Positions 11,958 through 60,691 of a stretch of DNA of 64,000 bases are shown piece by piece. Every line of letters starts with the position of its first letter. The stretch's first letter is position 1. The notes beneath the pieces are model-generated. The model was given only the letters and a program-made list of their open reading frames with translations, was not told the origin of the DNA and did no database searches. Origin of the DNA: an uncultured Gammaproteobacteria bacterium (lineage in GTDB: Bacteria > Patescibacteriota > Patescibacteriia > Magasanikbacterales > UBA922); assembly GCA_964394405.1 (NCBI GenBank), contig CAYMVY010000002.1, positions 128,092 through 192,091 of the forward strand, read 5' to 3'. Position numbers and translations under genes: made by a program.

Positions 11958-12476
11958 TTAGTTAATTAGAGAAATAAGTTTGGTAATCATTTTTTTGACA
12001 TCTTCAGTATACTGTTTTTCCAGATCTTCTTTAGAAAGATTTTCAACCAATCCTACGTATACACTTGGGACGACTGCTTTCATCTGCAGATACATGAATA
12101 TTGCCATCAGGTGCTCAATCATGCGAGCCCCACCGATTTTACCCGATGACACGCCGACAACCCCTACAGCTTTTCCCTCATATTCTCTATACGCCATATC
12201 AAGGAGTAATTTGAATTCTCCAGGATAACTCCGATTGTATTCTGGAATGACGAAGATGAATCCAGCAGCTCGTTTGGCGATTTCTTTCCAACGTTTTGTC
12301 TTGTCACTCTCTTCCCAGCTTGGGATAGTCCGAGGTATTTCAACAAAATCTTTGACGTCAATAAATTCAGTTTCGATATCAAATAACTGTGCAGCCGAGT
12401 GTACAAATTTTGCTACTTTTTCTGACTGTCTTCCTTCTCGTGCAGTGCCGAGAACAATTGGGATGTAGGGCTTCAT
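11958..12476 (-). CDS. NAD(P)H-dependent FMN reductase (flavodoxin-like fold)
   Basis: 172 aa. GTAREGRQSE near the N-terminus and PEYNRSYPG motifs typical of the SsuE/YieF/ArsH-like FMN reductase family. Confidence 0.75.
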   Translation of the reverse strand: MKPYIPIVLGTAREGRQSEKVAKFVHSAAQLFDIETEFIDVKDFVEIPRTIPSWEESDKTKRWKEIAKRAAGFIFVIPEYNRSYPGEFKLLLDMAYREYEGKAVGVVGVSSGKIGGARMIEHLMAIFMYLQMKAVVPSVYVGLVENLSKEDLEKQYTEDVKKMITKLISLIN

Positions 12477-12529
12477 ATACTACGTATTATATATACTAGA
12501 GTAACAGATTCGCTTATTTGAGGCAACTA

Positions 12530-12557
12530 TTGACAAAAATCAATCATCATCTATACT
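12530..12557 (+). promoter_or_regulatory. Candidate sigma70-type promoter (TTGACA-16-TATACT) facing high-GC island A
   Basis: ttgacaaaaatcaatcatcatctatact read directly. Lies in the AT-rich host-like spacer just before the GC jump. Confidence 0.3.
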
Positions 12558-12659
12558 ATAGCCCTCCTCACGCTGATTCTCTAACAGAAGAACAACAGCC
12601 ACAGCACCATGACTGAGGAGTAATGTGTGCTTTTTCTGGAGCAACTAATGGATCCGTAT

Positions 12660-13169
12660 ACCTTCACCCAGCGCACCGGTAATGCCTTCCTCGCTCTGCC
12701 CCGTGTGACTGTCTACGACTGCCACATCCCCGTCTTCTCCCGCACCTTCACCATCCTGCATCAGGATGACCTCCGCCAGCTGATCTTCATGATGGGCGTC
12801 GCGCGTGTCATCCAGACGACGGAGAAGGCGCACGAGCTCTACAGCGCGCTCGGTCTGGACATGCTCCCGAACATGGGGGCGATCGCTGAGCGTATGTCCG
12901 GCATGAGGAAGCTGAAGCCCGCGAACGGTCTCGAGTACATCATGACCGATGACTCGCCCCGTAGCATGCGTCTCCAGGGCGCCCGCCTGCCCGAGGTGCA
13001 TAGCTACCGCGATGCGTTCCTCCAGGTCCTCGGCCTCCACAAGTACGACCAGGTCTCGCCTGCGGAAGGCGTGACCCTGCTCGATCAGGTGCTCAAGGCT
13101 GATCTGCCGATGGATCAGGACATCGCCATGAAGATCGCGATCATCGCCGGCACCTTCGACTTGTTCTGA
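12660..13169 (+). CDS. Hypothetical protein of high-GC island A (169 aa from ATG 12660, or 180 aa from 12627)
   Basis: Strong GC3 bias on the plus strand. The antisense 175-aa ORF is Arg/Leu/Glu-rich, typical of a non-coding frame. GGAG sits 7 nt before ATG 12660. No recognisable domain. Confidence 0.5.
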   Translation, partial: TFTQRTGNAFLALPRVTVYDCHIPVFSRTFTILHQDDLRQLIFMMGVARVIQTTEKAHELYSALGLDMLPNMGAIAERMSGMRKLKPANGLEYIMTDDSPRSMRLQGARLPEVHSYRDAFLQVLGLHKYDQVSPAEGVTLLDQVLKADLPMDQDIAMKIAIIAGTFDLF

Positions 13170-13375
13170 CACACAAGTTTCTCTAGCCTTCCCAGGAAGG
13201 TATTGCAGGTAGAGAAGAAACTACACGACGATTGGGACGCGTGAAAACGCGTTTGGAGATTGGACGAATCCTGCTTCGTCCTTCCTACTACTATCTTTAA
13301 TTATTAGAGGTAATTGAGGAATAAAAAGCCGCTTATGGGCGGTCTTTTTGTTTTTGTCAGTTTTACCCTCTAACC

Positions 13376-13404
13376 TTGACAAAAGGGCTTAATTGTGCTA
13401 TACT
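13376..13404 (+). promoter_or_regulatory. Strong consensus sigma70-like promoter TTGACA-17-TATACT inside island A
   Basis: ttgacaaaagggcttaattgtgctatact. A structured GC-rich leader and two small ORFs follow. Confidence 0.4.
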
Positions 13405-13513
13405 GAGCTGTTTCCGTATCTAACCGCAGGTTGTAGAGGTCGTACCTCATTGAAGTACCCCCTCTACAGCGCTACGGAATGGATCCGTCGCTGAGACCCC
13501 TTGGAGAGGACAA

Positions 13514-13642
13514 ATGAAGAAGTATCTCATTGCCGCTGGACTGACGATCGGACTCACCTTGATGGTGGTCCGCGTGGTCACCTGGGTCGTTAACGAGGCC
13601 CCGGTCGTTCCGGAGCGGCACCAGTTCGTGTACGACCCGTGA
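13514..13642 (+). CDS. Small hydrophobic peptide (42 aa) MKKYLIAAGLTIGLTLMVVRVVTWVVNEAPVVPERHQFVYDP
   Basis: GGAGAGG SD 6 nt upstream of the ATG. Single TM helix plus charged tail. Inside high-GC island A. Not in the ORF track (under 60 aa). Confidence 0.35.
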   Translation: MKKYLIAAGLTIGLTLMVVRVVTWVVNEAPVVPERHQFVYDP

Positions 13643-13658
13643 ACATCGGGACGTGCAA

Positions 13659-13730
13659 CATGCTCGGCAGCGCGTCGGTCATCGCTATCGTGGTGGTCAT
13701 CGTGGCCATCCTGAAAGCGTGCTACGCGTG
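13659..13730 (+). CDS. Very small hydrophobic peptide (23 aa) MLGSASVIAIVVVIVAILKACYA
   Basis: Begins 17 nt after the previous ORF. Entirely hydrophobic. A GC-rich hairpin (gggcggtgtcgcaagacgccgccc) follows. Confidence 0.25.
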
Positions 13731-13807
13731 AAACCTAACAACTGGGCGGTGTCGCAAGACGCCGCCCGAACCCAACTATCATTTTAAATCTTTGAAGTGA
13801 TTGAGGA

Positions 13808-13839
13808 CCCTGTACCAGAACGGTACAGGGTTTTGATTT
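13808..13839 (+). terminator. Rho-independent terminator hairpin ending island A (ccctgtacc agaac ggtacaggg + T-run)
   Basis: Perfect 9-bp stem followed by ttttgattt. Confidence 0.5.
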
Positions 13840-13844
13840 GCACA

Positions 13845-15620
13845 CTACTCAATAAACCCTCCAACTTGCGTGCCCCAGAGTTCCTGGTATATTCCTGTTT
13901 TTTTACTTACCAATGCTTTGTGAGTACCTTGTTCGACTATTTTTCCTTTGTCCACTACGATAATTCGATCCATATGCATGATAGTCGATAATCGATGCGC
14001 GATTGCAATGACTGTTCTTCCTTTTACCAATTCATGTAATGCTTCCTGGATCAACCTTTCTGATTCTGAATCAAGGCTTGAAGTAGCTTCGTCGAGTACG
14101 AGAATCGGAGCGTCCTTCAACATTGCTCGTGCCATAGCGATACGCTGACGCTCCCCACCAGATAATTTCACTCCTCGTTCCCCTACCATCGTGTCATAAC
14201 CTTGTGGAAACGACGTAATAAATTCATGGCATTGCGCACGCTTCGACGCAATAATCATTTCTTTTTCAGTAGCATCTGATCTCCCGTACATAATATTCTC
14301 TCTCACGCTACGATGAAACAATACAGGATCTTGTGGTACGTATGCAATCGCACGCCACAGACTTTCCTGGGTTACTTCGGTAATCGGAGTATTATCAATT
14401 TTGATGGCACCTTTTGAAACGTCGTAGTAGCGAAGTAGTAGTTTTACGATAGTTGACTTCCCTGCTCCTGAATGCCCGACGAGCGCTACTTTTTCTCCAG
14501 GACGTACCAAAAGTGAGAAGTCATTCAGCAATGCTTTTTTAGCATTGTATTTGAATGTCACTCGCTCGAACTTAATACTCCCTTTAGTAACTTCAAGATT
14601 AATTGCATCCTTTTTATCAGTAATCCCATGTGGCGTGTAGTAAATAGCGGCAAATTCTTTTGCATCTGCAAAATGTTCATATACATCACGAAAACTTCGT
14701 GCAAAATTCCATACACGATGAAATACTGCAAGCGAATAGCCATTTATCAGGACCAAGTCTCCAATAGTGAGTGTGCCCGCACGCCAAAACTGTAAGGCGA
14801 GATAGAGTAGTACTATTTCAAATAAAGTCATAAGTGCACCCTGTAAACCATCAAGTTTGATTGTGAGTACACGCGAAAAGAAACGTCGTGATCGTACTTC
14901 CTCTGATACGGTGTCAAAATTCTTTTCTTCTTTGAGGTATGATGAAAACAACTTTACATTTGGATAATTGGTGACAATATCAGCCAATACACCTGTTTGT
15001 TTGCTCTCGGCTTCACTTCTGAGTGCGTCAAATTTTAATTTATAGAGACTTGTGTAATATGTTGCTGCTAGGTATAGAATCAACCATCCGAACAGAAGAA
15101 GTCCAAATATATAATTGGTCATGAACAATACTACACCGATCGATAGAATTAAAAATCCTGAGCCGAATAGTGTGTATTGAAGAAAATCAATCATGATCAC
15201 CGTAAATGCGCTTTCAAATTTTCGCATGTCTGAGATAAGCGAACCAATGTATTTGTTTTCAAAAAAATTAAACGAATGACGAAGAGTGGTTTTTAACATT
15301 TCATTATATAATTTTTTTCGTACGTGCATTTCCGATCGTGCACGGAAGTAATGATGCAAGCGATCAGAAATCCAATTCATGCAGAGCAGTCCTAAAATCA
15401 AAAAAACCGCCTGCAATGCTTCGTTATATGCCATTTCTCTGGTAAACGTTTCATTCGTTAGTGCATCAATCAATAGTTTGTAGAAATATGGATATGCTAG
15501 ATCTCCTGCATTCCACAATATAATAAATATCGAAGAAACAACAAAAGACCATTTGAATGGACGTAAATATTTCCAAAATAATTGTAACACTTGCTTATTG
15601 GTAACTTCGGAGGGTTTCAT
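13845..15620 (-). CDS. ABC transporter, fused permease/ATP-binding exporter (MsbA/LmrA-like)
   Basis: 591 aa. Six-TM domain, then Walker A GHSGAGKST, ABC signature LSGGERQR and Walker B ILVLDEATS. Confidence 0.9.
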   Translation of the reverse strand: MKPSEVTNKQVLQLFWKYLRPFKWSFVVSSIFIILWNAGDLAYPYFYKLLIDALTNETFTREMAYNEALQAVFLILGLLCMNWISDRLHHYFRARSEMHVRKKLYNEMLKTTLRHSFNFFENKYIGSLISDMRKFESAFTVIMIDFLQYTLFGSGFLILSIGVVLFMTNYIFGLLLFGWLILYLAATYYTSLYKLKFDALRSEAESKQTGVLADIVTNYPNVKLFSSYLKEEKNFDTVSEEVRSRRFFSRVLTIKLDGLQGALMTLFEIVLLYLALQFWRAGTLTIGDLVLINGYSLAVFHRVWNFARSFRDVYEHFADAKEFAAIYYTPHGITDKKDAINLEVTKGSIKFERVTFKYNAKKALLNDFSLLVRPGEKVALVGHSGAGKSTIVKLLLRYYDVSKGAIKIDNTPITEVTQESLWRAIAYVPQDPVLFHRSVRENIMYGRSDATEKEMIIASKRAQCHEFITSFPQGYDTMVGERGVKLSGGERQRIAMARAMLKDAPILVLDEATSSLDSESERLIQEALHELVKGRTVIAIAHRLSTIMHMDRIIVVDKGKIVEQGTHKALVSKKTGIYQELWGTQVGGFIE

Positions 15621-16183: not shown

Positions 16184-17575
<1,392 letters not shown>

Positions 17576-17590
17576 TTATTATAGATTATA

Positions 17591-18520
17591 TTAATTTTCC
17601 AGTGCAGCCGCTCCTCCAGCGATTTCTGCAATTTCTTTCGTAATACCAGCTTGTCTTGCTTTATTGAATTCTATGGTTAATGCGTCAATCATGTCCCCTG
17701 CCGCCTCTGTCGCATTCTTCATCGCGACCATACGAGCGCTATGCTCACTTGCCCTCGATTCCAGAAGTGTCTGATAGAGCTGGACTTCGAATAGTCGGGG
17801 TAAGACTGTCTCCATAATCATTGTTGTATCTGGTTCAAATTCATATTCTGTCGTATCCTCCACTTTCACTTCTTTTTCAGCTTTTTCTTCTCCTACATCA
17901 TCGAGCATTGTGTCAATATCTTCTTTGGTAATGGGGAGTAATTTTCGTATTTTTGGAACTTGTACGATACTTGATTTGAAATCCGTGTATGCCACAAGCA
18001 CTGCATCATATTCACCTGATTTGAATTTCTCAAGTGCAGTATTCGTAATTGGGAGAATATCTTCTACGGTCGGATTATCACGAATTGCGTCATATGCTGC
18101 GATGAGCGGATAATTGAATCGCTTTGCAAAATAAGCACTCTTTTTTCCAACTCCAATAATGTCATACATCAAATCATTGGCGGACACATCACCAAACACG
18201 TCTGCGCGTGTAAGAAGATTTCTAGTTTTTTTGAAAATATTTGAGTTGAAACTTCCCGCAAGTCCTCTATTTGAACTGAACAACACTACTAATACTTTTT
18301 TTACCGGACGTACTTCGGTCAGTGGACTTTTTACTTCACCATTCATACTCAATTTTTCCATGAGTTCACGCGCAAGTAACGCATAGGTGCGGGTTGCAGT
18401 CACTGCTTGGATTGCTTTTCGCATTTTTGCAGCCGAAACCATCTCCATTGCTTTGGTGATTTTTTTCGTGTTTTTCACGGATTTGATTCGTTGTTTGATC
18501 GCTTTTCCGCTGACTGCCAT
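17591..18520 (-). CDS. atpG: F1 ATP synthase gamma subunit
   Basis: 309 aa. Conserved N-terminus (IKQRIKSVKNTKKITKAMEMVSAAKMRKA) and C-terminal helix. Confidence 0.9.
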   Translation of the reverse strand: MAVSGKAIKQRIKSVKNTKKITKAMEMVSAAKMRKAIQAVTATRTYALLARELMEKLSMNGEVKSPLTEVRPVKKVLVVLFSSNRGLAGSFNSNIFKKTRNLLTRADVFGDVSANDLMYDIIGVGKKSAYFAKRFNYPLIAAYDAIRDNPTVEDILPITNTALEKFKSGEYDAVLVAYTDFKSSIVQVPKIRKLLPITKEDIDTMLDDVGEEKAEKEVKVEDTTEYEFEPDTTMIMETVLPRLFEVQLYQTLLESRASEHSARMVAMKNATEAAGDMIDALTIEFNKARQAGITKEIAEIAGGAAALEN

Positions 18521-18526
18521 ACGATA

Positions 18527-20017
18527 TTATTTTGCAAATTCTTTAATTGCTTCTTTTAATTCTTTTTCCACGTCCTCATTCCAGTCACCTTTCTTGATTT
18601 TTCCAAGAAGCGCTGATTTTGATTTTTTCATAAATTCAAGAAACTTCTGTTCAGTTTCCTTTACCGCTGAAACCTCAACAGCATCAAATAATCCCTGTGA
18701 CATCGCGTAGATGGATGCAACCTGCTCCTCTACTGCCTGAGGAGCATACTGAGGTTGTTTCAAAAGTTCAGTCATTCGGCGACCACGTTCGATAGATTTC
18801 TTGGTTTCTGGATCAAGATCACTTGCGAATTGTGCAAATGCTTCAAGTTCTCGGAACTGTGCAAGTCCAAGTTTCAAACTTCCTGCGACTTTTTTCATTG
18901 GTTTAATCTGTGCTGATCCTCCTACACGAGATACCGAGAGACCTACGTTTAGCGCTGGGCGGATACCACGGAAGAAGAGATCTGTTTCAAGGAAGATCTG
19001 TCCATCAGTAATCGAAATTACGTTTGTTGGAACGTATGCTGAGATATCTCCTGCCTGAGTTTCGATAATAGGTAATGCGGTAATTGATCCCCCACCATTT
19101 TCTTTATTGAGACTGCAAGCGCGCTCTAATAAGCGTGAGTGGAGATAAAATACGTCTCCAGGATATGCTTCACGTCCTGGTGGGCGTCGGAGCAAGAGTG
19201 ACATTTCGCGATATGCCCAAGCTTGCTTGGTCAAATCATCATAGATAATCAATACATCTTTTCCTTTGTCCATGAAATATTCTCCAATTGCAACTCCTGC
19301 ATATGGAGCAAGATATGACATCGGAGCAGGTTCAGATGCACCAGCAGATACTACAATTGTATAATCCATCGCTCCCGCTTCTTTCAATTTTGACACAATT
19401 CGGGCAACTTTTGATTCTTTTTGTCCAACAGCAACATAGATACAAATAATATCCTGACCTTTCTGATTGAGAATAGTATCGATTGCGATTGCGGTTTTTC
19501 CAGTCTGACGATCACCGATGATAAGCTCGCGTTGTCCACGTCCTACCGGGATGAGCGCATCAATCGCTTTGATACCAGTCTGCATCGGACGACTTACTGG
19601 TTCACGAGTCATTACACCTGGCGCAATTCGTTCTACTGGATAGAATGTTTTGGTATTAATCGCGCCCTTTCCATCAATTGGTTCACCAATCGCATTTACT
19701 ACGCGACCAATGAGTGCGTCAGCAACCGGAACAGACATGATACGTCCTGTTCTTTTTACCGTATCACCTTCTTTAATATGCTGATATGAGCCTAAGATTA
19801 CCGCACCTACAGTTTCTTCCTGCAAATTCAACGCAATACCAAACGTATTTCCTGGGAATTCCAACATTTCCTGAGCCTGACATTTCTCAAGCCCGCTCAT
19901 GCGCGCGATTCCGTCCCCAATTTCAATAACGGTACCTACTTCTTCGACCTGGACTTCTTTTTTGAACGATTCGATATTTTTCTTAAGTGATGCAATCACT
20001 TGATCGGTATATGCCAT
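18527..20017 (-). CDS. atpA: F1 ATP synthase alpha subunit
   Basis: 496 aa. P-loop GDRQTGKTA and conserved alpha motifs. Confidence 0.97.
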
Positions 20018-21388: not shown

Positions 21389-22174
21389 CTAATGAGCTTC
21401 AGCGCCATGTGGTGCCTGACTATTCACGGTCAAATATACCAAGGTAAGCATTGCAAATACGCTTGCCTGAATCAACCCAACTAATAGCTCAAGTAACATA
21501 AATGGCGCAGGAACAACAGCGGCAACAAGTGCCGACATTACCGTAATCAAAACTTCTCCTGCAAAAATGTTTCCAAATAAACGAAGTGAAAGAGATAATA
21601 CTTTTGCTGCCTCACTAATGATTTCTAGAATTCCTACCCCAAATTCTATGAGTGCAGTCAAAATTGCCATGGGTCCTTTTGGAATACTTTTAATGACCCC
21701 GCCAATCTGGATAAATTTACCTAAGTGTGTGAATACACCAATAGCGAGAAAAGCATAGACATGGGACGCAATTACTGCAACTAGTGCCATAACAAGCGTA
21801 AGATTCAAATCAGAATTTGCGGGGCGAAGTACCATATTATGCCCGAGCGTAATACTTCCCGTACCAGGTAAAAGACCCAACCAATTGGAAAGTAAAATAA
21901 AAAAGAAGATCGATCCAACTATTGGTAAAAAGCGAATAGTTTTTTTTCGATCTCCTGTGACTTGGTCGAAATATGGGAGTAATAGTTCTAGAATATATTC
22001 AAATCCATTTTGCAATTTTCCTGGTCGCATCAGCACATTACGTTTAATCATGATTCCTACTATCAGTAAAATGATGATTGCAATCCAAACATTCACAACT
22101 GTATTGGTAACCGGAACTGGTCCCATCTGGAACAATACTTCTGGTGCAAGTGTTGGAATGTGGATTTCCGCCAT
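21389..22174 (-). CDS. atpB: Fo ATP synthase a subunit (copy 1)
   Basis: 261 aa. Conserved LSLSLRLFGNIFAGEVL with the essential Arg. Confidence 0.9.
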   Translation of the reverse strand: MAEIHIPTLAPEVLFQMGPVPVTNTVVNVWIAIIILLIVGIMIKRNVLMRPGKLQNGFEYILELLLPYFDQVTGDRKKTIRFLPIVGSIFFFILLSNWLGLLPGTGSITLGHNMVLRPANSDLNLTLVMALVAVIASHVYAFLAIGVFTHLGKFIQIGGVIKSIPKGPMAILTALIEFGVGILEIISEAAKVLSLSLRLFGNIFAGEVLITVMSALVAAVVPAPFMLLELLVGLIQASVFAMLTLVYLTVNSQAPHGAEAH

Positions 22175-23457: not shown

Positions 23458-24249
23458 TTATGTTTTCTGTTGTTCCTGCGTTGCCACTGCGAGTGTAATG
23501 TATGCAGCTGTCAACGAACCAAACACCATCGCCTGCAATACCCCGACTAGGAGGTTCATTGCAGTCCATGGTGCTGGTACGAGCACTGCAAGTGCTCCTA
23601 GGAATATCGCTGCCAAAACTTCGCCCGCATACATATTTCCAAACAAACGCAACGAAAGGGAGATGACTTTTGCAAATTCTGAAACAATATCCAATAATCC
23701 AATAAAAAAGTCAATAATCGCGAGCATTCCTGCACCAACACCTTTTCTGAAACCTTCAAATATTTCTTTTATTTTCACAAATTTTCCAATGTGTCCAAAT
23801 AATCCAAAATCTCTAATACTCATCACATTTGCGAGTATGACCATCGCGAGCGCGATACTAAATGTCATGTTGAAATCATTGGTAGGGGTGCGGAAAAGCG
23901 AAACCCCATTGTATGTGATTGCCGAGAGACCTGGGATTAGCGTGACGATATTTGAAAAACCCAAGAAAAGAAATAATGCACCAATCAGGGGGAGTAATTT
24001 TTTTGCAAGTTTCTCATTTCCGGTAATTGATGTAAGTAACCCTACAAATACTTCAACAATCTTTTCCACCAATGCTTGGAACGAAGTAGGCACATTGTTT
24101 TTTCTTCTGTATATTGAAAGTGAAATACATAAGAAAAATAACGTAACCATTACCCCCATAAGCATTGCATTGGTAAATTCAAAACTCCCAATCGAGAATA
24201 TCGTCTCTGGGCGAATTGAGATTTGTTCTGAAGGTACTTGCAGAAACAT
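23458..24249 (-). CDS. atpB: Fo ATP synthase a subunit (copy 2)
   Basis: 263 aa. Conserved ISLSLRLFGNMYAGEVL with Arg. Confidence 0.85.
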   Translation of the reverse strand: MFLQVPSEQISIRPETIFSIGSFEFTNAMLMGVMVTLFFLCISLSIYRRKNNVPTSFQALVEKIVEVFVGLLTSITGNEKLAKKLLPLIGALFLFLGFSNIVTLIPGLSAITYNGVSLFRTPTNDFNMTFSIALAMVILANVMSIRDFGLFGHIGKFVKIKEIFEGFRKGVGAGMLAIIDFFIGLLDIVSEFAKVISLSLRLFGNMYAGEVLAAIFLGALAVLVPAPWTAMNLLVGVLQAMVFGSLTAAYITLAVATQEQQKT

Positions 24250-31011: not shown

Positions 31012-31181
31012 TGTCTTTCTCCTTCTCCTACAGTTGCGCCCTTAATCGACACACCGTATGCGGAACAAGGGCTAGACACTGATTCTACGCTAATCTATCT
31101 ATTCACTATTGTCAAATTTTTACAACTGGAACACATCTACTATTTTTGTTATACTACCTTATGTTCATAATTAAAACTCTT

Positions 31182-33470
31182 ATGCAATTATATAAAAAGG
31201 CTTTTTTAGTTTTTATTTCGATTGTTCTCACGCTCCCGAGTTCACTCTCTGCTGCCACTTTTGATCCTAATTTTCTCATTAGTGATGAAGAGCTGCAGAA
31301 CTGGCAGAGTATGAATCGTGAAGACATACAGGCATTCCTGAACGATAAGGGCGGGTATATTGCGACATGGGCTGGTCCTGATAAGGATGGTGTCAACCGT
31401 CCAGTATCAGATATTATTCATCGAGCAGCAGTAGACAACAAAATTAACCCTAAATACTTGTTGGTAAAGCTCCAGAAAGAGCAGAGTCTCATCACCGAAG
31501 ACAGTCCTACTCAGAAGCAGCTTGACTGGGCAACCGGGTATGGCGTGTGTGACAGCTGCTCAATGGATGACCCCAATATTCAAAAACACAGAGGATTTGG
31601 AGTTCAGGTGGATAGTGCCGCAGGCATCATGCGTTGGTATTATGAAAATGTGCATTCACAAGGATGGATAAAAAAACCTGCGACCGCGTATCTTATTGAC
31701 AGCACACCAGTGACCCCGGCAAATTTTGCTACCGCTTTTCTCTACACATACACTCCGCATATTCACGGGAATTTGAATTTTTGGAAATTATGGCAAGAAT
31801 GGTTTGATCAGGTGTATCCTGATGGTTCTCTTATTAAGACTGCGAATTCTCCAGATGTATATCTTATCCAGGACGGTGAGAAGAGAAAATTTACAAGCCT
31901 GACTGCGCTTGCCACACGTTTTAACCCGAAGTTGATTCTCACAGTTCCCGAGAGTGAATTATCCAGATATGCTGAGGGAAAAAATATTTCTCTTCCCAAC
32001 TACTCTATTGTTTTTGATGGATCCACCTATTATCTCCTCGACTATGATTTCAAACATCGATTTGCAAGTGCTGAGACAGTAAGGCAAATCGGCTACAACC
32101 CTGATGAAATAATCAATGTTGAGCCAGGTGACCTCAATTCCTACATTCAGGGAAATATCATCGAGAGTAATACCACCTCCCCTCTCGGGCGTATTATTGA
32201 AGTTAGAGAATCAAAAAATCAATACTTTGTGGAGGCGGGTGTGATGCATCCCCTATTCGATCCTGCACTTATAAAGATAAATTTTCCTCACTTAAGTCTT
32301 GAAAAAGTTTCTTCTGGTGAATTTAGTTCCCTTGGACTTACATTTGGAGACCCTATCCTTCCCAAAGATGGTACTGTCCTTGGTGTGAAGGGGTACAATG
32401 AAATCTACGTCATGGAGAAAGGAAAAAAACGTCATATCGCAAGTGAGGCTGTGTTCAATGGACTTGGCTACTCATGGAGTAATATTGTATGGGTTAATGA
32501 GTATTTGGGTACTGCCATAGAAACTGCCGAACCGATATACCTCAAATCCAGTCCTTCTTCATCATCTTCACAATTTACTAGCTCACCTGCTAATCAGACC
32601 TCTAAGATTGATACACCCACGTCTCCCTCAACACCTGTCACCAAAAAACCAATTGATTACTTAGTCAGAACACCTGCTGATAAGATTTCTTTTGTCGGAG
32701 AAAAATTTGAAACCCCAATTGAATCATACATAGTTGCTGACTATGAAACAGGTACAATCGTCTCGGGGAAAAATATTGATACTATTCGTCCTCTTGCCTC
32801 ACTCTCAAAATTAATGACCGCGCAAGTGCTCCTGGATAAAAAAATTTCTCTGACTGATTCAACTACCTATACAGCTGCATTACATAAATCAAACTATCAT
32901 AATTATACTATCGCCGAAGGAGATCAAATTCCCAACAAGTATCTCTTTTATTCCATGCTAGTTTCATCAAATAATACTGCGTCAGTCATGCTAGTTCGGA
33001 ATCTCGGATACGACATGAGTGGTTTTTCTTCACTTATGAATAGCAAAGCACAAGAGCTCGGGCTCCCTACTATGTCATTTGTCGAATCCTATGGATACGA
33101 CCCTCGAAACCAGGCAACACCTCGTGAAGTCCTCGCATTATTCCAAGAAGTGCTCAAAAATGATACTATAAAAAATAGTCTAGGTATGCCCACCCTCTCA
33201 TACGAGGAAATCATGAGCAATGATACCGTGGTCACACATACAGAGTCTCACAGTAATTCCCTATTAAAGCGAGCAAACCTACCCTACGCCATACTCGCGA
33301 GTAAGACTGGATTTCTCTATGAATCAGGGGCTAATCTTGCAATGTTAATCGAGAGAAAAAGTGACGGGAAAAAATTAATTGTACTCACAATGGGTAATCC
33401 TGACTTTGGCACTGACTCCAGATTCGATGAACCAGCACGACTCACTTCATGGGCTATACAAAATTTTTAA
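31182..33470 (+). CDS. Large secreted protein with C-terminal serine-type D-Ala-D-Ala carboxypeptidase (peptidase S11, PBP5/DacA-like) domain
   Basis: Signal peptide from MQLYKK. About 430-aa N-terminal domain of unknown function, Ser/Pro/Thr linker, then SxxK (ASLSKLM), S-N (VSSNN) and KTG (SKTGF) motifs. Confidence 0.75.
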   Translation: MQLYKKAFLVFISIVLTLPSSLSAATFDPNFLISDEELQNWQSMNREDIQAFLNDKGGYIATWAGPDKDGVNRPVSDIIHRAAVDNKINPKYLLVKLQKEQSLITEDSPTQKQLDWATGYGVCDSCSMDDPNIQKHRGFGVQVDSAAGIMRWYYENVHSQGWIKKPATAYLIDSTPVTPANFATAFLYTYTPHIHGNLNFWKLWQEWFDQVYPDGSLIKTANSPDVYLIQDGEKRKFTSLTALATRFNPKLILTVPESELSRYAEGKNISLPNYSIVFDGSTYYLLDYDFKHRFASAETVRQIGYNPDEIINVEPGDLNSYIQGNIIESNTTSPLGRIIEVRESKNQYFVEAGVMHPLFDPALIKINFPHLSLEKVSSGEFSSLGLTFGDPILPKDGTVLGVKGYNEIYVMEKGKKRHIASEAVFNGLGYSWSNIVWVNEYLGTAIETAEPIYLKSSPSSSSSQFTSSPANQTSKIDTPTSPSTPVTKKPIDYLVRTPADKISFVGEKFETPIESYIVADYETGTIVSGKNIDTIRPLASLSKLMTAQVLLDKKISLTDSTTYTAALHKSNYHNYTIAEGDQIPNKYLFYSMLVSSNNTASVMLVRNLGYDMSGFSSLMNSKAQELGLPTMSFVESYGYDPRNQATPREVLALFQEVLKNDTIKNSLGMPTLSYEEIMSNDTVVTHTESHSNSLLKRANLPYAILASKTGFLYESGANLAMLIERKSDGKKLIVLTMGNPDFGTDSRFDEPARLTSWAIQNF

Positions 33471-33480
33471 TACACTCGTT

Positions 33481-34275
33481 ATGCCTCTCGTATTTGCCGC
33501 AATCACACCTCACTCTCCTGTACTAATCCCGCAAATTGGGAAAAATGATCATCACAAAGCGCAAAAAACTCTTGAGGCACTTTCGACACTCGAAGAAAAT
33601 CTATATATTTCAAAGCCGCATGTTATTATTGTTTTTACTGCCCATGCGCAAGCTTTCCCCGATACATTTGTTGTGAATGCTCACACTAATTTTACCTCCT
33701 CATTTGAAGAATTTGGCGACCACTCACTACAGAATACCTACCTTGGTTCACCTGATTTTGCAGCCAAACTTTCCCACGGGGCTAGTCGCGAACATATCCC
33801 GCTACGACTAGTCAGTGAAAAACAACTTGATCACGGGTGCAGTGTTCCACTCTACTACCTCACCTCTCATCTTCCACAGATAAAGGTAGTACCTATTGGA
33901 CCCTCAGATCTCCCCCCTACCACACATCTGTCATTTGGCAATCTGATCAAAGAAATCTGTATGGACTCGGATAAACGAGTCGCTCTCATCGCTTCTGCAA
34001 ACCTCTCACACGGAATTACGACTGATTCTCCTGCTGGTTTTCGAGTGAATGGGCAGAAATTTGACAAGAGTATTATTGAACTTCTCGAGTCTCACAATAC
34101 GACGGGAATTGCCACACTTGACCCTGCACTTGTAAAAGACGCAGCAGAAACAGGTTATACCTCCATTCTACTTCTCCTCGGTGCCCTAAAAAATATCGAC
34201 TACGAATTCAAGCATCTTGCCTATGAAGCGCCATTTGGCGTAGGATACCTCACAGCCGAGTTTATCTTTTCATAA
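33481..34275 (+). CDS. LigB/MEMO1-superfamily (class III extradiol dioxygenase-like) protein
   Basis: About 264 aa from MPLVF. Motifs ITPHSP, LDHGCSVPL and SANLSHG resemble the DODA/YgiD/MEMO1 metal-binding His pattern. Confidence 0.5.
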   Translation: MPLVFAAITPHSPVLIPQIGKNDHHKAQKTLEALSTLEENLYISKPHVIIVFTAHAQAFPDTFVVNAHTNFTSSFEEFGDHSLQNTYLGSPDFAAKLSHGASREHIPLRLVSEKQLDHGCSVPLYYLTSHLPQIKVVPIGPSDLPPTTHLSFGNLIKEICMDSDKRVALIASANLSHGITTDSPAGFRVNGQKFDKSIIELLESHNTTGIATLDPALVKDAAETGYTSILLLLGALKNIDYEFKHLAYEAPFGVGYLTAEFIFS

Positions 34276-34281
34276 AAACAC

Positions 34282-36198
34282 ATGATTGCGTCAGTCGTGC
34301 CTCTCAAGCGCCTCCCGCGCTTTTCTTCAATTTTTGATTATGCAATTCCGCATACTCTTGAAAATGATGTACTACCAGGACAACTGGTAATCATTGAGTT
34401 TAGAAAGAAAAAAGAATTTGCCATTATTCTCCGGACATCGACCGAACACAGCACTGAATTTGCCTACAAACCTATAGACTCTATTGTTCATCCAATTCCA
34501 ATATTTTTAACAACACACCTACGTTTATTACAGCAGCTTTCAGTACTCTACGCCGTATCTCTCGCAACACTTTGCAAAACCTCGTTATTACCTTTGCAAA
34601 AACGAAAACTTACAAAAATAATACTTACTCCCGAGGCATTACTTCCGACCCATAGCACTACTCCATCCCAGTCTTATGTACTGTACCAAACTGAACAGGA
34701 GCACCGTGCACTATTTGGCAATCTTACCGAGTCCCACACTACACTAGTCCTCGTTCCTGAAGTTTCAAAACTTGCAGACATACACCGGTTTATAACAGAT
34801 ACTACTAATTCTCCAATTCTTATCTGGAGATCGGATCTTTCAATCAAGGAAAAATATGATCTTTGGCTCCGTGTACGGAATGCTACCGAACCTATTATTA
34901 TCATCGGAGCCCGAAGCGCTCTTACCCTGCCATTTAGAAGACTCGATCGAATTATCATGGATTTTGAGCACGATGAGCAGTATAAAAATTATGATCAACA
35001 GCCAAAATTTCACACTAAAGATATCGTCGCCCTTCTTGCGAACTTATACCAATGTCAAGTCACCTACTCCAGTTTTTCTCCGAGCTTTGACTGTTATTAT
35101 TCAATTGTAAAAAATTCCCTACCTTGTACCACAGGAAATCATACCTATCAGTCAGGACTTCTCTTTATCACAGATACTACATCCAACTCCATCCGGATTA
35201 TCGAACACACCCAGCAGACCCGCGAAGACCGTATATGTTCAATTGCTATTGAAGATTCTATTCGTGAAATTGCTCAAAAACAAGTCGGTGATGCGACCAT
35301 TCTTGTCCAGCGAAAAGGTTATGCGACTACGGTCATCTGCAAAGATTGCGGACACATTGAAGTCTCAAAGGAGTCAGGGGTGCCCATGATTTATCGAACA
35401 GAGACTCGTATGACGCACGCGCCCTACAGCGGAGAAAGGCGTCCACTACCACTGACCTGTAGTTCGTGCGGTTCGACCACACTTAGACTGCAAGGTATTG
35501 GTACTGAGAAGGTCGCCTCGTTTTTTTCTGATATTTTTAAGAAGGAAAACATCAACATGCCTATTTTTCGGATTGATGACAACACCGAGCATTCTACATT
35601 CGAAAAATTATCAGCAGATACTCCACGACTCTTGATTGGCACTGAGAAAATACTCTCATACATACGCCACGATAAAACTCAGGCATACGTTATTCTCGAT
35701 TTTGATCGTTTTCTTGCAATCCCTGAATACAATTCTTTTGAACATGCAGTACATCTCGTCGATGAGCTTAATTACTATCGAAGCCACAATTCCCAATTAT
35801 TACTCGAAGTCTCTTCGGGAGAAAAAAACTTCTTTAGACTGTTCAAAGAACGAGATCGTGTATACCGTACTGAACTTAGTCTACGACAACAGCTGGGTTA
35901 TCCTCCATATCAAAGTATGATAAAATATACCGTAGCATCTTTTTCTAGAGGAAGTGCTCAAACATTGGCACATAATCTCAGACAAGAGATTGCACTACGA
36001 TTGACAAATAGGGGTATTCCTGCTACACTCAGCGAAATTTACGAGACGCATCCTAATTTTGAAAAAATGAAATACTGGTGTGGAATATTGCTAAAAACAA
36101 ATTCTGAAAATGTTTTAAAAATAGCTGAAATAATCCATCCACATTTACCCAAAGAATGTATTGTCGACATACATCCTCTCTCTGTACTATCTCCTTAG
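34282..36198 (+). CDS. priA: Primosomal protein N' (PriA) homolog with degenerate helicase motifs
   Basis: 638 aa. PriA-like N-terminus, Cys4 zinc-ribbon insert (CKDCGH...CSSCGS) and C-terminal domain. No GKT/GKS anywhere. Motif II reads DFEH instead of DEEH. Conserved priA-def gene order. Confidence 0.65.
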   Translation: MIASVVPLKRLPRFSSIFDYAIPHTLENDVLPGQLVIIEFRKKKEFAIILRTSTEHSTEFAYKPIDSIVHPIPIFLTTHLRLLQQLSVLYAVSLATLCKTSLLPLQKRKLTKIILTPEALLPTHSTTPSQSYVLYQTEQEHRALFGNLTESHTTLVLVPEVSKLADIHRFITDTTNSPILIWRSDLSIKEKYDLWLRVRNATEPIIIIGARSALTLPFRRLDRIIMDFEHDEQYKNYDQQPKFHTKDIVALLANLYQCQVTYSSFSPSFDCYYSIVKNSLPCTTGNHTYQSGLLFITDTTSNSIRIIEHTQQTREDRICSIAIEDSIREIAQKQVGDATILVQRKGYATTVICKDCGHIEVSKESGVPMIYRTETRMTHAPYSGERRPLPLTCSSCGSTTLRLQGIGTEKVASFFSDIFKKENINMPIFRIDDNTEHSTFEKLSADTPRLLIGTEKILSYIRHDKTQAYVILDFDRFLAIPEYNSFEHAVHLVDELNYYRSHNSQLLLEVSSGEKNFFRLFKERDRVYRTELSLRQQLGYPPYQSMIKYTVASFSRGSAQTLAHNLRQEIALRLTNRGIPATLSEIYETHPNFEKMKYWCGILLKTNSENVLKIAEIIHPHLPKECIVDIHPLSVLSP

Positions 36199-36207
36199 CC
36201 TATCTAT

Positions 36208-36705
36208 ATGCTTCCCATTATTACTACTCCAAATAAAATTCTAGAGACACGGGCACGAGAACTCACTCCTGATGAAATTGATTCTCAGCCAATTCAGTCA
36301 TTGATTGATGCAATGATACCAACTATGTATTCGAATGAGGGTATTGGGCTTGCGGCACCGCAGGTAAATCATTCAGTGCGTGTATGTATCATAGGCAAAG
36401 GAGCAGTGAAGCTCGACCGCAAAACAACCCTCCCCCACGAAGATTTAGTTCTGATTAATCCGGTGTGGGAAAAGACCAGTAAAAAAACAAATAATGATCA
36501 GGAAGGCTGTCTCTCTATCCCTGGTATATATGGCACTGTCAAACGGTACTCACATATCCACGTTGAGGCACTTGATCGTCATGGTAAAAAACTATCATTT
36601 GAGGCACGAAATTTCTTTGCTCGAGTGATACAACACGAGGTCGACCACTTGGACGGAGTATTATTTACCACCAAGGCAAGCGATCTGAGACAAATAAAAA
36701 AATAA
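36208..36705 (+). CDS. def: Peptide deformylase
   Basis: 165 aa. Motifs GIGLAAPQV, EGCLSIPG and HEVDHLDG. Confidence 0.92.
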   Translation: MLPIITTPNKILETRARELTPDEIDSQPIQSLIDAMIPTMYSNEGIGLAAPQVNHSVRVCIIGKGAVKLDRKTTLPHEDLVLINPVWEKTSKKTNNDQEGCLSIPGIYGTVKRYSHIHVEALDRHGKKLSFEARNFFARVIQHEVDHLDGVLFTTKASDLRQIKK

Positions 36706-36812
36706 AAATTTCATGTGTACGTGTATTTTATTTTTCCGTATTCACCTATACTCCACAGTTTGCATACAATCAACACCCTAAAAAATCAGAGTAACAGTAC
36801 CCAATTTTAGGA

Positions 36813-58957: not shown

Positions 58958-60691
58958 TTGCATATGTATATGCACAATACACAATATCTACAATTAGTAC
59001 GTACTCATTTGAAGCCTATACTTATAGTAGTTACTCTAATTGTAGTTACCGTACTCTATGGGTGTGTATATTACAGAAATATACACACCAATCTTTCACA
59101 AGATCCTACACCAGATGAATTTTGGTTACATTTTCCAGGAGCAGAAAGTACCTCTAGCGGTATTCACTTCAAACCATTAGGTCGTGTCATTATTCACCAA
59201 GATGGTTCGGCAGGACAACCACATCCGCCAGTGAATTTGGCCGGTTCACATGTTGAGGTCACTGGTGATTTTAGAGTTACAGCGACACTAGTAGATATAG
59301 ACAAGCAGGCATCTCTCCGACTCTATGCCGGAGTTCCGATTGTTTATGATCAATGGCGGTATGAAACTCCCAGCGTCTCTATTGATGTGGAACAAAATCT
59401 GATTACGATGCGCGTCTGGGATGGTAGCTCATCTCATTCTATAGACATGAGAACCTATCCTGTTTCTCTTGGATCACAAACAACGATTTCTATAGAACAT
59501 ATACATGATCACATAAATATCGTTTTAAACAATCGACTATTGGGAAGTATTCCTGATCACGATATTTTTGAGAGCGGAAATATATGGTTTGGAGCAGATA
59601 GTCCGGAACTAAGCACTGGCTGGACACTCATTGCATTCAATGTACGTCCAGTTGGAAATGGAAGTGTTGAAATTATACCTGCCCCATCATTAGTTATAGA
59701 TCATGATGAAGAGAGTAGTTTGCGTAATTTAGCCGATATACATCCCCGGAAACTAAAAATTGGCGCGGCTATTGCCGTAGGTCCACTGGTTACACATGAA
59801 TCATATAGAATAGTAGCCCTGGGTCAGTTTAGTATGATGACACCTGAAAATAGTATGAAACCTCAATTTATTCACCCCCAACCTGATGTATATGTATTTG
59901 AAGAAGCAGATCAACTCGTTCTTGCTGCTGAAAAGAATGTGATGATGGTACATGGACACACATTACTGTACGATAAAAGCACTCCTCAGTGGATGATAGA
60001 CACTCCTGAATCACAACGAAAAGAAGTAATGCTCGACCACATTGAACATATTGTTGAACACTACAAAGGAAAAGTGTCAGGGTGGGATGTGGTCAATGAA
60101 CCGTTGTCCAAAAAACACGCTCTGTATGCAGATGGAGGTACTGGATTAGAACCAAATATCTGGTTTGAAGCCATGGGAGAAGAATATATCGACCTCGCAT
60201 TTGCTGCAGCGCACCAAGCTGACCCTTCGGCACAATTGTATTTGAATGATTTTGGTCTTGAGCGTGATGGAGAACGGTGGGATGCTCTGCTCCGCCTCGT
60301 CAAAAGACTGATACACAGAGGCGTACCTATCCATGGAGTTGGCTTTCAATCACATATCTATTCTGATGGTGACTATATTGATGCTAACGAACTCACCAAA
60401 CATATGGAGATATTAGCAACACTCGGACTCTCCACTCGTATATCAGAAATAGATGTAACCGGAGACGATCCTGATGAACAAATCAATCAATATGTGATAG
60501 CGCTGGACGTCTGTCTTCAGGCATCTAATTGTACCTCGTACACTACCTGGGGCATCACCGACCTCTATGGTTCTACCACCCGGTCTGACCGGTATCCACT
60601 GGTCTATGGTACCAGTTTGCTATGGGACACTGATATGAAAACTAAACCTGCCTATGGCGCACTGCAAAATAGACTTCAAGTGGTTGATTGA
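58958..60691 (+). CDS. Glycoside hydrolase family 10 (endo-1,4-beta-xylanase-like) with N-terminal TM and about 250-aa unknown beta-rich domain
   Basis: 577 aa. GH10 acid/base WDVVNEP and nucleophile ISEIDV (ITELD-type), plus HGHTLLY. Confidence 0.8.
   Translation: MHMYMHNTQYLQLVRTHLKPILIVVTLIVVTVLYGCVYYRNIHTNLSQDPTPDEFWLHFPGAESTSSGIHFKPLGRVIIHQDGSAGQPHPPVNLAGSHVEVTGDFRVTATLVDIDKQASLRLYAGVPIVYDQWRYETPSVSIDVEQNLITMRVWDGSSSHSIDMRTYPVSLGSQTTISIEHIHDHINIVLNNRLLGSIPDHDIFESGNIWFGADSPELSTGWTLIAFNVRPVGNGSVEIIPAPSLVIDHDEESSLRNLADIHPRKLKIGAAIAVGPLVTHESYRIVALGQFSMMTPENSMKPQFIHPQPDVYVFEEADQLVLAAEKNVMMVHGHTLLYDKSTPQWMIDTPESQRKEVMLDHIEHIVEHYKGKVSGWDVVNEPLSKKHALYADGGTGLEPNIWFEAMGEEYIDLAFAAAHQADPSAQLYLNDFGLERDGERWDALLRLVKRLIHRGVPIHGVGFQSHIYSDGDYIDANELTKHMEILATLGLSTRISEIDVTGDDPDEQINQYVIALDVCLQASNCTSYTTWGITDLYGSTTRSDRYPLVYGTSLLWDTDMKTKPAYGALQNRLQVVD

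Follow-up and report, generated by a model that had tools for sequence, protein, structure and literature searches.

By published accounts, bacteria conserve the helicase motifs of PriA, and Deinococcus-Thermus stands out as an exception (PMC4504706; PMC5778457). The PriA of D. radiodurans has neither ATPase nor helicase activity and binds single-stranded DNA (ssDNA), fork DNA and DnaB (Lopper, Boone and Morrow 2015; PMC4504706), with dissociation constants of ~215 nM for ssDNA and ~109 nM for fork DNA (PMC4504706). In E. coli PriA, the single K230R change abolishes activity, and the allele that carries it, priA300, supports restart in vivo via the PriA-PriB route (PMC5778457); the ATPase-dead K230A protein loads DnaB in vitro (PMC10175261). 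Here we analyzed a 64-kb stretch of contig CAYMVY010000002.1 (hereafter the window) that contains a priA-like gene in which the motifs of the motor are deleted or degenerate. Judged from its sequence, a predicted structure and the analogy to these known proteins, this gene is likely to be the priA orthologue of Magasanikbacteria-type Patescibacteria turned pseudohelicase, the product of which would act as an ATP-independent fork and D-loop scaffold for restart. The PriA pseudohelicase is a kind already known; the P-loop-deleted Patescibacteria family is a more extreme form of it, and full-text literature searches turned up no account of the family.

The gene is a single open reading frame (ORF) with an ATG start, the stop codon being counted in its coordinates:

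34282..36198, + strand: PriA-like pseudohelicase ORF, 638 amino acids (aa), from the ORF listing, PriA homology and an AlphaFold model

The protein has the PriA architecture that a first-pass annotation of the window, made from the sequence alone, had ascribed to it, with the order 3' binding domain, RecA-like lobe 1, RecA-like lobe 2 with a Cys-rich insert, and S10-like C-terminal domain. The Pfam domain PriA_3primeBD (PF17764) matches aa 12-101 (E 8.6e-12), and the sequences of the solved K. pneumoniae and E. coli PriA proteins align to aa 145-559 at ~1e-31. Thirteen NCBIfam PriA models also match, every one of them below its own curated cutoff, as with TIGR00595 (priA), at 195 bits against a cutoff of 230, and NF004066, at 238 bits against a cutoff of 813; these scores fit with the name "hypothetical protein" on some family records at NCBI. 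The AlphaFold model, built on an 83-sequence alignment, has a mean predicted local distance difference test score (pLDDT) of 92.3 and a predicted template modeling (TM) score of 0.90, with pLDDT of 90-97 in the C-terminal domain. In a Foldseek comparison of this model with the PDB, the nine best matches were all PriA chains (TM 0.65-0.81). The best was E. coli PriA bound to a fork and PriB (8fak_H, TM 0.81), followed by the engineered winged-helix-deletion PriA (6dcr_A, TM 0.71), ranked second, and apo or ADP-bound K. pneumoniae PriA (4nl4, TM 0.72). The closer fit to the fork-bound state is of interest, although we place little weight on it.

The motor motifs differ from those of canonical PriA at the following sites:

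34672..34716, + strand: deleted Walker A site, SYVLY/QTEQEHRALF, aa 131-145 (six-column alignment gap opposite GVTGSG)
34951..34971, + strand: degenerate motif II, IIMDFEH, aa 224-230, DFEH for DEEH (protein motif search and alignment)
35068..35085, + strand: degenerate motif III, SSFSPS (canonical GSATPS), aa 263-268 (alignment)
35632..35670, + strand: degenerate motif V, LIGTEKILSYIRH (canonical IGTQMxAKGxDF), aa 451-463 (alignment)
35758..35790, + strand: motif VI remnant, VDELNYYRSHN (canonical TQVAGRAGR), aa 493-503 (alignment)

In an alignment of the protein with nine canonical PriAs and 15 relatives, both close and distant, canonical FLLhGVTGSGKTEVY is matched by SYVLY, a six-column gap and QTEQEH. 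In the model, as assigned by DSSP, a strand at 129-134 meets a helix at 138-143 through three residues (pLDDT 95 for aa 131-140), and there is thus no space for a phosphate-binding loop. Alignment and model therefore both indicate that the P-loop is physically deleted, by six residues, with beta1 passing into alpha1 through three residues. Searches of the full protein for the patterns [AG]xxxxGK[ST], GxGK[ST] and GK[ST] found none of them, and a six-frame scan of 33300..36800 found no hidden P-loop, its sole match being out of frame inside def and irrelevant. Thus, the first-pass annotation was right that no GxGKT/S occurs anywhere and that the Walker A lysine is gone, but the lesion is the loss of the whole P-loop rather than of a lysine, and the P-loop is not intact at some shifted position. 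Walker A is normal in other P-loop proteins encoded in the window, namely an AddA-like helicase, an ABC ATPase, and ATP synthase alpha and beta.

The lesions extend to other motifs. In the alignment, the window protein lacks the Q motif (LTxxQxxA) of canonical PriA. Motif II, followed by DEQYK, retains its Asp, second Glu and His and has Phe in place of the first Glu, which is the DFEH reported in the first-pass annotation. In motif V, where canonical PriA has IGTQMxAKG, the window protein has IGTEKILSY, and only G453 and T454 are retained. Motif VI, QVAGRAGR in canonical PriA, is DELNYYRSH, such that both arginine fingers are gone. The inner four of the eight zinc cysteines are also gone, the two inner CxxC pairs being replaced by SKES (362-365) and HAPY (379-382). 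The winged-helix domain, ~70-100 aa in canonical PriA, consists of gap columns throughout the family. The prediction that the protein is inactive as an ATPase and helicase is therefore supported by the alignment with PriA orthologues, and the absence of the P-loop, Q motif and arginine fingers strengthens it; these lesions are wider than had been noted and are found across the clade.

The same lesions are found in a large family. The initial search of the databases gave 24 clusters that formed one block (608-641 aa, 100% to 30% identity), all without Walker A; in contrast, GxTxSGKT and DEEH were present in all the more distant full-length matches that were checked. A locus scan, which used one genome per GTDB species, found full-length relatives at 43 loci, none of them with Walker A (0/43) and all sharing the lesions. 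The ORF is intact and ~570-660 aa long in these 43 species genomes, except for one shortened copy and two cut by contig ends. In a profile search over 1.84 billion cluster representatives (50% identity clusters), the best 150 clusters were all of the short PriA type; even the 150th scored more than 380 bits, and the family thus exceeds the sequences listed. When 159 full-length sequences of the family were aligned with 92 canonical PriAs and 40 of the Gracilibacteria type, motifs I and VI proved to be absent from 158 of the 159 and near-universal in the other two groups. The sole exception, P0254 (Candidatus Torokbacteria), scores 397 bits against the family profile; it has EVTGSGKT, is motif-intact and lacks the winged-helix domain.

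The same alignment defined how individual motifs vary. GRxGR occurs in none of 158 family members, compared with GRAGR, GRSGR or GRTGR in 90 of 92 canonical PriAs and GRAGR or GRSGR in all 40 of the Gracilibacteria type. The most frequent family form of motif III is SFSP (SATP in 89/92 canonical PriAs). Motif II is DEEH in 80/92 canonical and 40/40 Gracilibacteria-type PriAs and takes the forms DYEH, DFEH, DDEG, DREH, DQEQ and others in the family, where the Asp and the following Glu are mostly kept and the position between them can be Y, F, D, R, Q, A, E, K or H. Thus, although DFEH stands in place of DEEH in the window protein, its Phe is not conserved across the family.

Most of the 43 genomes are labelled Candidatus Magasanikbacteria or Patescibacteria. 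Some records (L001-L004, L007, L008, L017, L021 and others) are titled "uncultured Gammaproteobacteria bacterium", yet have a Patescibacteria-type neighbourhood; the priA-like proteins in these bins are 31-66% identical to the window protein. Taxon labels on many metagenome bins are unreliable, and these titles are probably generic mislabels.

We considered loss of the winged-helix domain as part of the same syndrome and rejected this idea, since the domain is likewise missing from the presumably active PriAs found in Gracilibacteria, Peregrinibacteria and other Patescibacteria. The domain is thus not essential to membership in the PriA family. Compact, winged-helix-less but motif-intact PriAs of 640-700 aa are common in Peregrinibacteria, Gracilibacteria, Torokbacteria and the Parcubacteria group, and also occur in some Omnitrophica and NPL-UPA2 (for instance L059 7807-9840, P0265-P0384, P0254, and P0390 onward); they are natural counterparts of the engineered winged-helix deletion. 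A 2018 PNAS study by Windgassen et al. reportedly found that this deletion impairs E. coli PriA in vivo. The comparison with sister lineages that had been proposed for the window gene thus places it beside PriAs that are like it in being compact and in joining the 3' binding domain to lobe 1 by a short basic linker, and unlike it in retaining GxTGSGKT, DEEH, SATP, GTQM and GRxGR. With these motifs, the short Patescibacteria proteins are presumably active helicases.

In contrast to the motor motifs, the following elements are retained or conserved:

34282..34584, + strand: 3' DNA-binding domain, aa 1-101 (PF17764 at aa 12-101)
34336-34341, + strand: 3'-end pocket residues D19 and Y20 (E. coli D17 and Y18)
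34468-34470, + strand: 3'-end pocket residue K63 (E. coli K61)
34588..34611, + strand: basic linker LPLQKRKL, aa 103-110, in the position of the winged-helix domain (alignment gap and invariant residues)
34744..34764, + strand: retained motif Ia, LVLVPEV, aa 155-161 (alignment)
34981..35022, + strand: retained aromatic-rich loop, the motif IIa equivalent, YKNYDQQPKFHTKD, aa 234-247 (conservation in the family)
35317..35481, + strand: Cys-rich region, aa 346-400, with CKDC 353-356 and CSSC 393-396 as the outer CxxC pairs that are kept
35902..36195, + strand: C-terminal domain with YPPY, D629 and P632, aa 541-638 (conservation and model)

The 3'-end pocket of E. coli PriA is formed by Asp17, Tyr18 and Lys61 (PMC5778457). 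We found that F18, D19, Y20 and K63 are invariant in a 24-member alignment, and that over 158 family members Y20 is 99% and K63 88% conserved. The linker residues L103, P104, Q106, K107, R108 and K109 are likewise invariant among the 24. The two best conserved stretches of the family are this linker and the aromatic loop, and both were picked automatically as patterns for the locus scan. Since the linker occupies the place of the winged-helix domain, which in E. coli touches the parental duplex DNA (PMC10175261), it is a reasonable guess that the basic patch LPLQKRKL is a putative DNA contact. In the aromatic loop, K235 is 99%, P241 100%, D238 85% and position 242 (mostly Arg) 87% conserved; the equivalent loop of E. 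coli PriA crosslinks at the fork junction (PMC5175346) and wedges into it (PMC10175261). In motif Ia, P159 is invariant in the first alignment, active PriAs included, with family-wide conservation of 96% (L155, 91%). The motif IV region RKGYA is kept, and at the C terminus P541 (97%), P542, D629 and P632 (100% each) are near-invariant. From the conserved pocket and junction loop, we infer that the protein would still bind ssDNA and forks.

The first-pass annotation had also described a four-Cys zinc insert, and the sole CxxC pairs of the protein are indeed CKDC (aa 353) and CSSC (aa 393). These residues of the outer zinc site (C353, C356, C393 and C396) are 96% conserved in the family. In the subclade of the window protein, one of two zinc sites is retained. 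Cysteines have been lost in a graded manner: deep members have all eight, the subclade of the window protein has four, and a few (e.g. L041 and L043) have none. In one subset (L041 4454-6205, L043 10001-11707, P0161, P0172, P0174, P0177, P0192, P0229 and others) the whole Cys-rich zinc region is lost, the proteins being ~570-585 aa long, and there is no CxxC in L041 or L043. In E. coli PriA, this region is part of the ssDNA pore and a docking site for PriB.

The distribution of conservation among domains differs from that in active PriAs. Among active PriAs, conservation is highest in the helicase lobes (mean top-residue frequency 0.66-0.71) and lowest in the 3' binding and C-terminal domains (0.45-0.47). 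The lobes of the pseudohelicase family reach just 0.48, and its 3' binding domain, also at 0.48, has not fallen (0.45 in active PriAs). Thus, in these alignments the constraint derived from catalysis appears lost and that on DNA recognition kept. The gene is clearly under purifying selection, with a ratio of nonsynonymous to synonymous substitution rates (dN/dS) of 0.08-0.18 for ortholog pairs with unsaturated synonymous sites.

The neighbourhood of the gene is also conserved:

31146..34275, + strand: conserved upstream neighbour block (Pfam; order and spacing repeated in L001-L043)
31146-33470, + strand: D-Ala-D-Ala carboxypeptidase-family protein (PBP), upstream neighbour (Pfam match)
33379-34275, + strand: ORF for a LigB/Memo-family protein, upstream neighbour (Pfam match)
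36208..36705, + strand: def, peptide deformylase, downstream neighbour (Pfam Pep_deformylase, 9.4e-50)

The first-pass claim of a priA-def context stood, since def begins 9 nucleotides (nt) past the priA-like stop codon and the 43 loci keep one gene order, in which rsmI, on the opposite strand, precedes the carboxypeptidase, LigB/Memo, priA-like and def genes. Gaps or overlaps in this cluster are typically <25 nt, and def lies 0-125 nt 3' of the priA-like gene in most of the 43. In the window, 31146-36705 forms a tight same-strand cluster with overlaps and gaps of a few nt, an arrangement kept in ~40 species. A canonical priA in a Dehalococcoidia genome (L055) also has def 10 nt downstream. 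The conserved order, together with this canonical priA-def pair, argues for orthology with priA rather than a stray paralogue. An identical priA-like protein is encoded on a 6.5 kb contig (L081) from an independent Logan assembly of run SRR12404947, in which gene calls give the same neighbours as in the window.

Comparison with known PriA proteins sets this family apart from each of them. It is like canonical PriA (E. coli and K. pneumoniae; PDB 4NL4, 6DGD, 8FAK) in its domain order (model TM 0.81), 3'-end pocket, motif Ia, aromatic loop, outer zinc site, YPP motif and priA-def neighbourhood. Unlike canonical PriA, the window protein is missing the winged-helix domain, Q motif, Walker A and motif VI; it has degenerate forms of motifs II, III and V, it belongs to a subclade that has lost the inner zinc site, and it scores below the NCBIfam cutoffs. 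The E. coli K230R/A/D variants (priA300) provide a second likeness, in that they are ATPase-dead and still assemble primosomes and support PriA-PriB restart, as does the engineered winged-helix-deletion PriA (PDB 6DCR), which folds and crystallises without the domain and matches the model at TM 0.71. However, each of these variants carries one engineered lesion, in a gammaproteobacterial protein whose partners are PriB, DnaT and DnaC, whereas the priA-like protein combines both lesions and more, naturally and under purifying selection.

The closest natural precedent is the PriA of Deinococcus-Thermus, and the comparison with it drawn in the first-pass annotation is a real one (PMC4504706). Each is a naturally occurring homologue of clear PriA descent in which motifs I and II have degenerated, and in both the loss is lineage-wide and not an accident of a single genome. 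They differ in that the Walker A-like loop of Deinococcus-Thermus PriA persists, with Lys changed to Arg, whereas in the priA-like family the loop is deleted. Moreover, neither the Q motif nor motif VI is present in the window protein, which at 638 aa is short and has no winged helix. Two local features, an Arg where E. coli has G37 and the DQxPR form of the aromatic loop, are shared by the pseudohelicases and active Patescibacteria PriAs, and an unrooted distance tree splits active forms and pseudohelicases cleanly. (The tree was made by neighbour joining; long pseudohelicase branches distort its midpoint rooting, and we used it solely as an unrooted split.) Based on the compact architecture and local features held in common with active Patescibacteria PriAs, the loss of the ATPase in the Magasanikbacteria-centred branch was probably independent of that in Deinococcus-Thermus. 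The simplest history suggested by these sequences would be a compact active Patescibacteria PriA, followed by a single loss of the ATPase in the Magasanikbacteria-centred branch.

How might a PriA without a motor work? We propose that the protein would bind an abandoned fork or D-loop without ATP, with lobe 2, the Cys-rich region and the C-terminal domain holding the ssDNA of the lagging-strand template between them. It would then recruit the replicative helicase, directly or via an adaptor, and the helicase would be reloaded onto lagging-strand template that is already single-stranded. Since there would be no motor to clear a duplex lagging arm, the protein should act only at forks that expose ssDNA or after processing by another enzyme. 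This mechanism mirrors that of E. coli PriA K230R/A and of the natural D. radiodurans PriA. The window also encodes, at 8032-10974 on the - strand, an AddA-like fusion of a UvrD/Rep-type helicase and a PD-(D/E)XK nuclease, 980 aa long, the Walker A of which is intact (AGAGTGKT at aa 25). The AddA-like protein is a candidate for DNA-end or fork processing beyond the reach of a motorless PriA.

The lesions and the retained recognition elements support the suggestion, made in the first-pass annotation, that this PriA would be an inactive scaffold, but several points weigh against the interpretation. First, the loss of ATPase activity is deduced from motifs and a predicted structure. Second, motif II largely keeps its Asp and second Glu across the family, as motif V does its GT, and these residues could have structural roles or serve in residual ligand binding. 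Third, the protein evolves faster than its neighbours (in L001, 66% identity compared to 73-90% for flanking genes), and in the distance tree the family evolves faster than active PriAs; this fast divergence shows that constraint is relaxed, yet not absent. Fourth, Pfam searches of 34 of the larger ORFs found no DnaB, loader, SSB, PriB, DnaT or DnaD in the 64-kb window. Finally, a second canonical priA is possible elsewhere in the genomes of the clade.

The last three of these points bear on the idea that the protein has been repurposed as a binder of branched DNA outside replisome reloading, whether for protection or marking of forks and D-loops, as an inhibitor, or as a paralogue beside a canonical PriA. 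Accelerated divergence, the lack of linked restart partners and the possible second priA fit such a role, as does the loss in some members of the inner zinc site or of the whole Cys-rich region, which includes the docking site for PriB in E. coli (PMC10175261). We nevertheless think this unlikely, because the gene sits in the priA-def position held by a canonical priA in another phylum, and because the nearest precedent, D. radiodurans PriA, keeps DnaB binding. As to a canonical PriA beside it, the Pfam scans of 34 of the larger ORFs found no second priA in the window, and no motif-intact PriA with a Magasanikbacteria label was among the 120 matches listed for each of three large searches, although this is weak evidence.

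The second of the points above raises the alternative that the protein is still a nucleoside triphosphatase (NTPase) or translocase that uses a non-canonical nucleotide site, made of remnants such as D227, E229, G453 and T454 or corresponding to a proposed second site of PriA. D227, E229 and the GT of motif V are indeed largely conserved, and E. coli PriA possibly has another site that binds nucleotide more weakly, the location of which is not known (PMC5778457). Nevertheless, 158 of 159 members lack the entire glycine-rich loop (with Lys/Thr), as well as the Q motif and the two arginines of motif VI, the model has merely a three-residue turn where the phosphate-binding loop should be, and the helicase lobes show no excess of conservation. 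Moreover, K230R alone kills the activity of E. coli PriA. We therefore consider a surviving NTPase very improbable. Finally, that the gene is a decaying pseudogene, or its missing P-loop a sequencing or assembly artefact, is barely conceivable: the absent catalytic motifs, the NCBIfam PriA scores below cutoff and the evolution faster than that of the neighbours fit with it, but the ORF is intact and the lesions recur in the 43 species genomes with conserved synteny (allowing for the three incomplete copies), dN/dS is low, the predicted fold is very confident, the independent assembly encodes the identical protein and no alternative frame holds a P-loop, all of which speaks against the decay, sequencing error or frameshift raised in the first-pass annotation.

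We also noted other features of the window. A GC-rich island of ~550 bp (12627-13172) lies in a 2-kb bin (12001-14000) with a GC content of 0.50, compared to ~0.40 elsewhere; it has long ORFs on both strands (180 aa on +, 175 aa on -) and a search of Rfam (12.6-13.2 kb), permissive in its threshold, gave no match. Perhaps this is a foreign or unusual gene. Two paralogues of the ATP synthase A chain (subunit a), at 21389-22174 and 23458-24249, both on the - strand and ~1.3 kb apart, are 37% identical over 243 aa and adjoin the genes for F-type ATPase alpha, gamma and beta (16184-20017). In a 577-aa protein encoded at 58958-60691 on the + strand, aa 264-570 match the xylanase domain of glycoside hydrolase family 10 (E 7e-76), and such a gene is unusual cargo in a small Patescibacteria genome.

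If the gene is a restart-competent PriA pseudohelicase, then PriA pseudohelicases would have a second, independent origin, in a lineage that is larger and more radically stripped than the first, and motor loss in PriA would be a recurrent outcome under selection. Fork recognition and partner recruitment would be the irreducible function of PriA, and a minimal PriA would need a 3'-end pocket, a junction loop, a single zinc site and a C-terminal domain. Such a protein would be a natural fork sensor without a winged-helix domain, a P-loop or arginine fingers and, in some members, without one or both zinc sites, and it would work with a set of partners unlike those of the studied PriB/DnaT or DnaD/DnaB/DnaI systems. 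The family offers a compact natural scaffold of ~640 aa for the study of fork recognition without ATP-driven movement. The finding is of interest for replication restart, for reduced genomes and for annotation practice, since the scores below cutoff and the "hypothetical protein" records mean that automated reconstructions could wrongly score replication restart as absent. On balance, we lean, with some reserve, toward the broader proposal that the whole branch of Magasanikbacteria and relatives, a phylum-level group within the Patescibacteria with at least 158 clusters at 50% identity, restarts replication with a minimal, ATP-free PriA.

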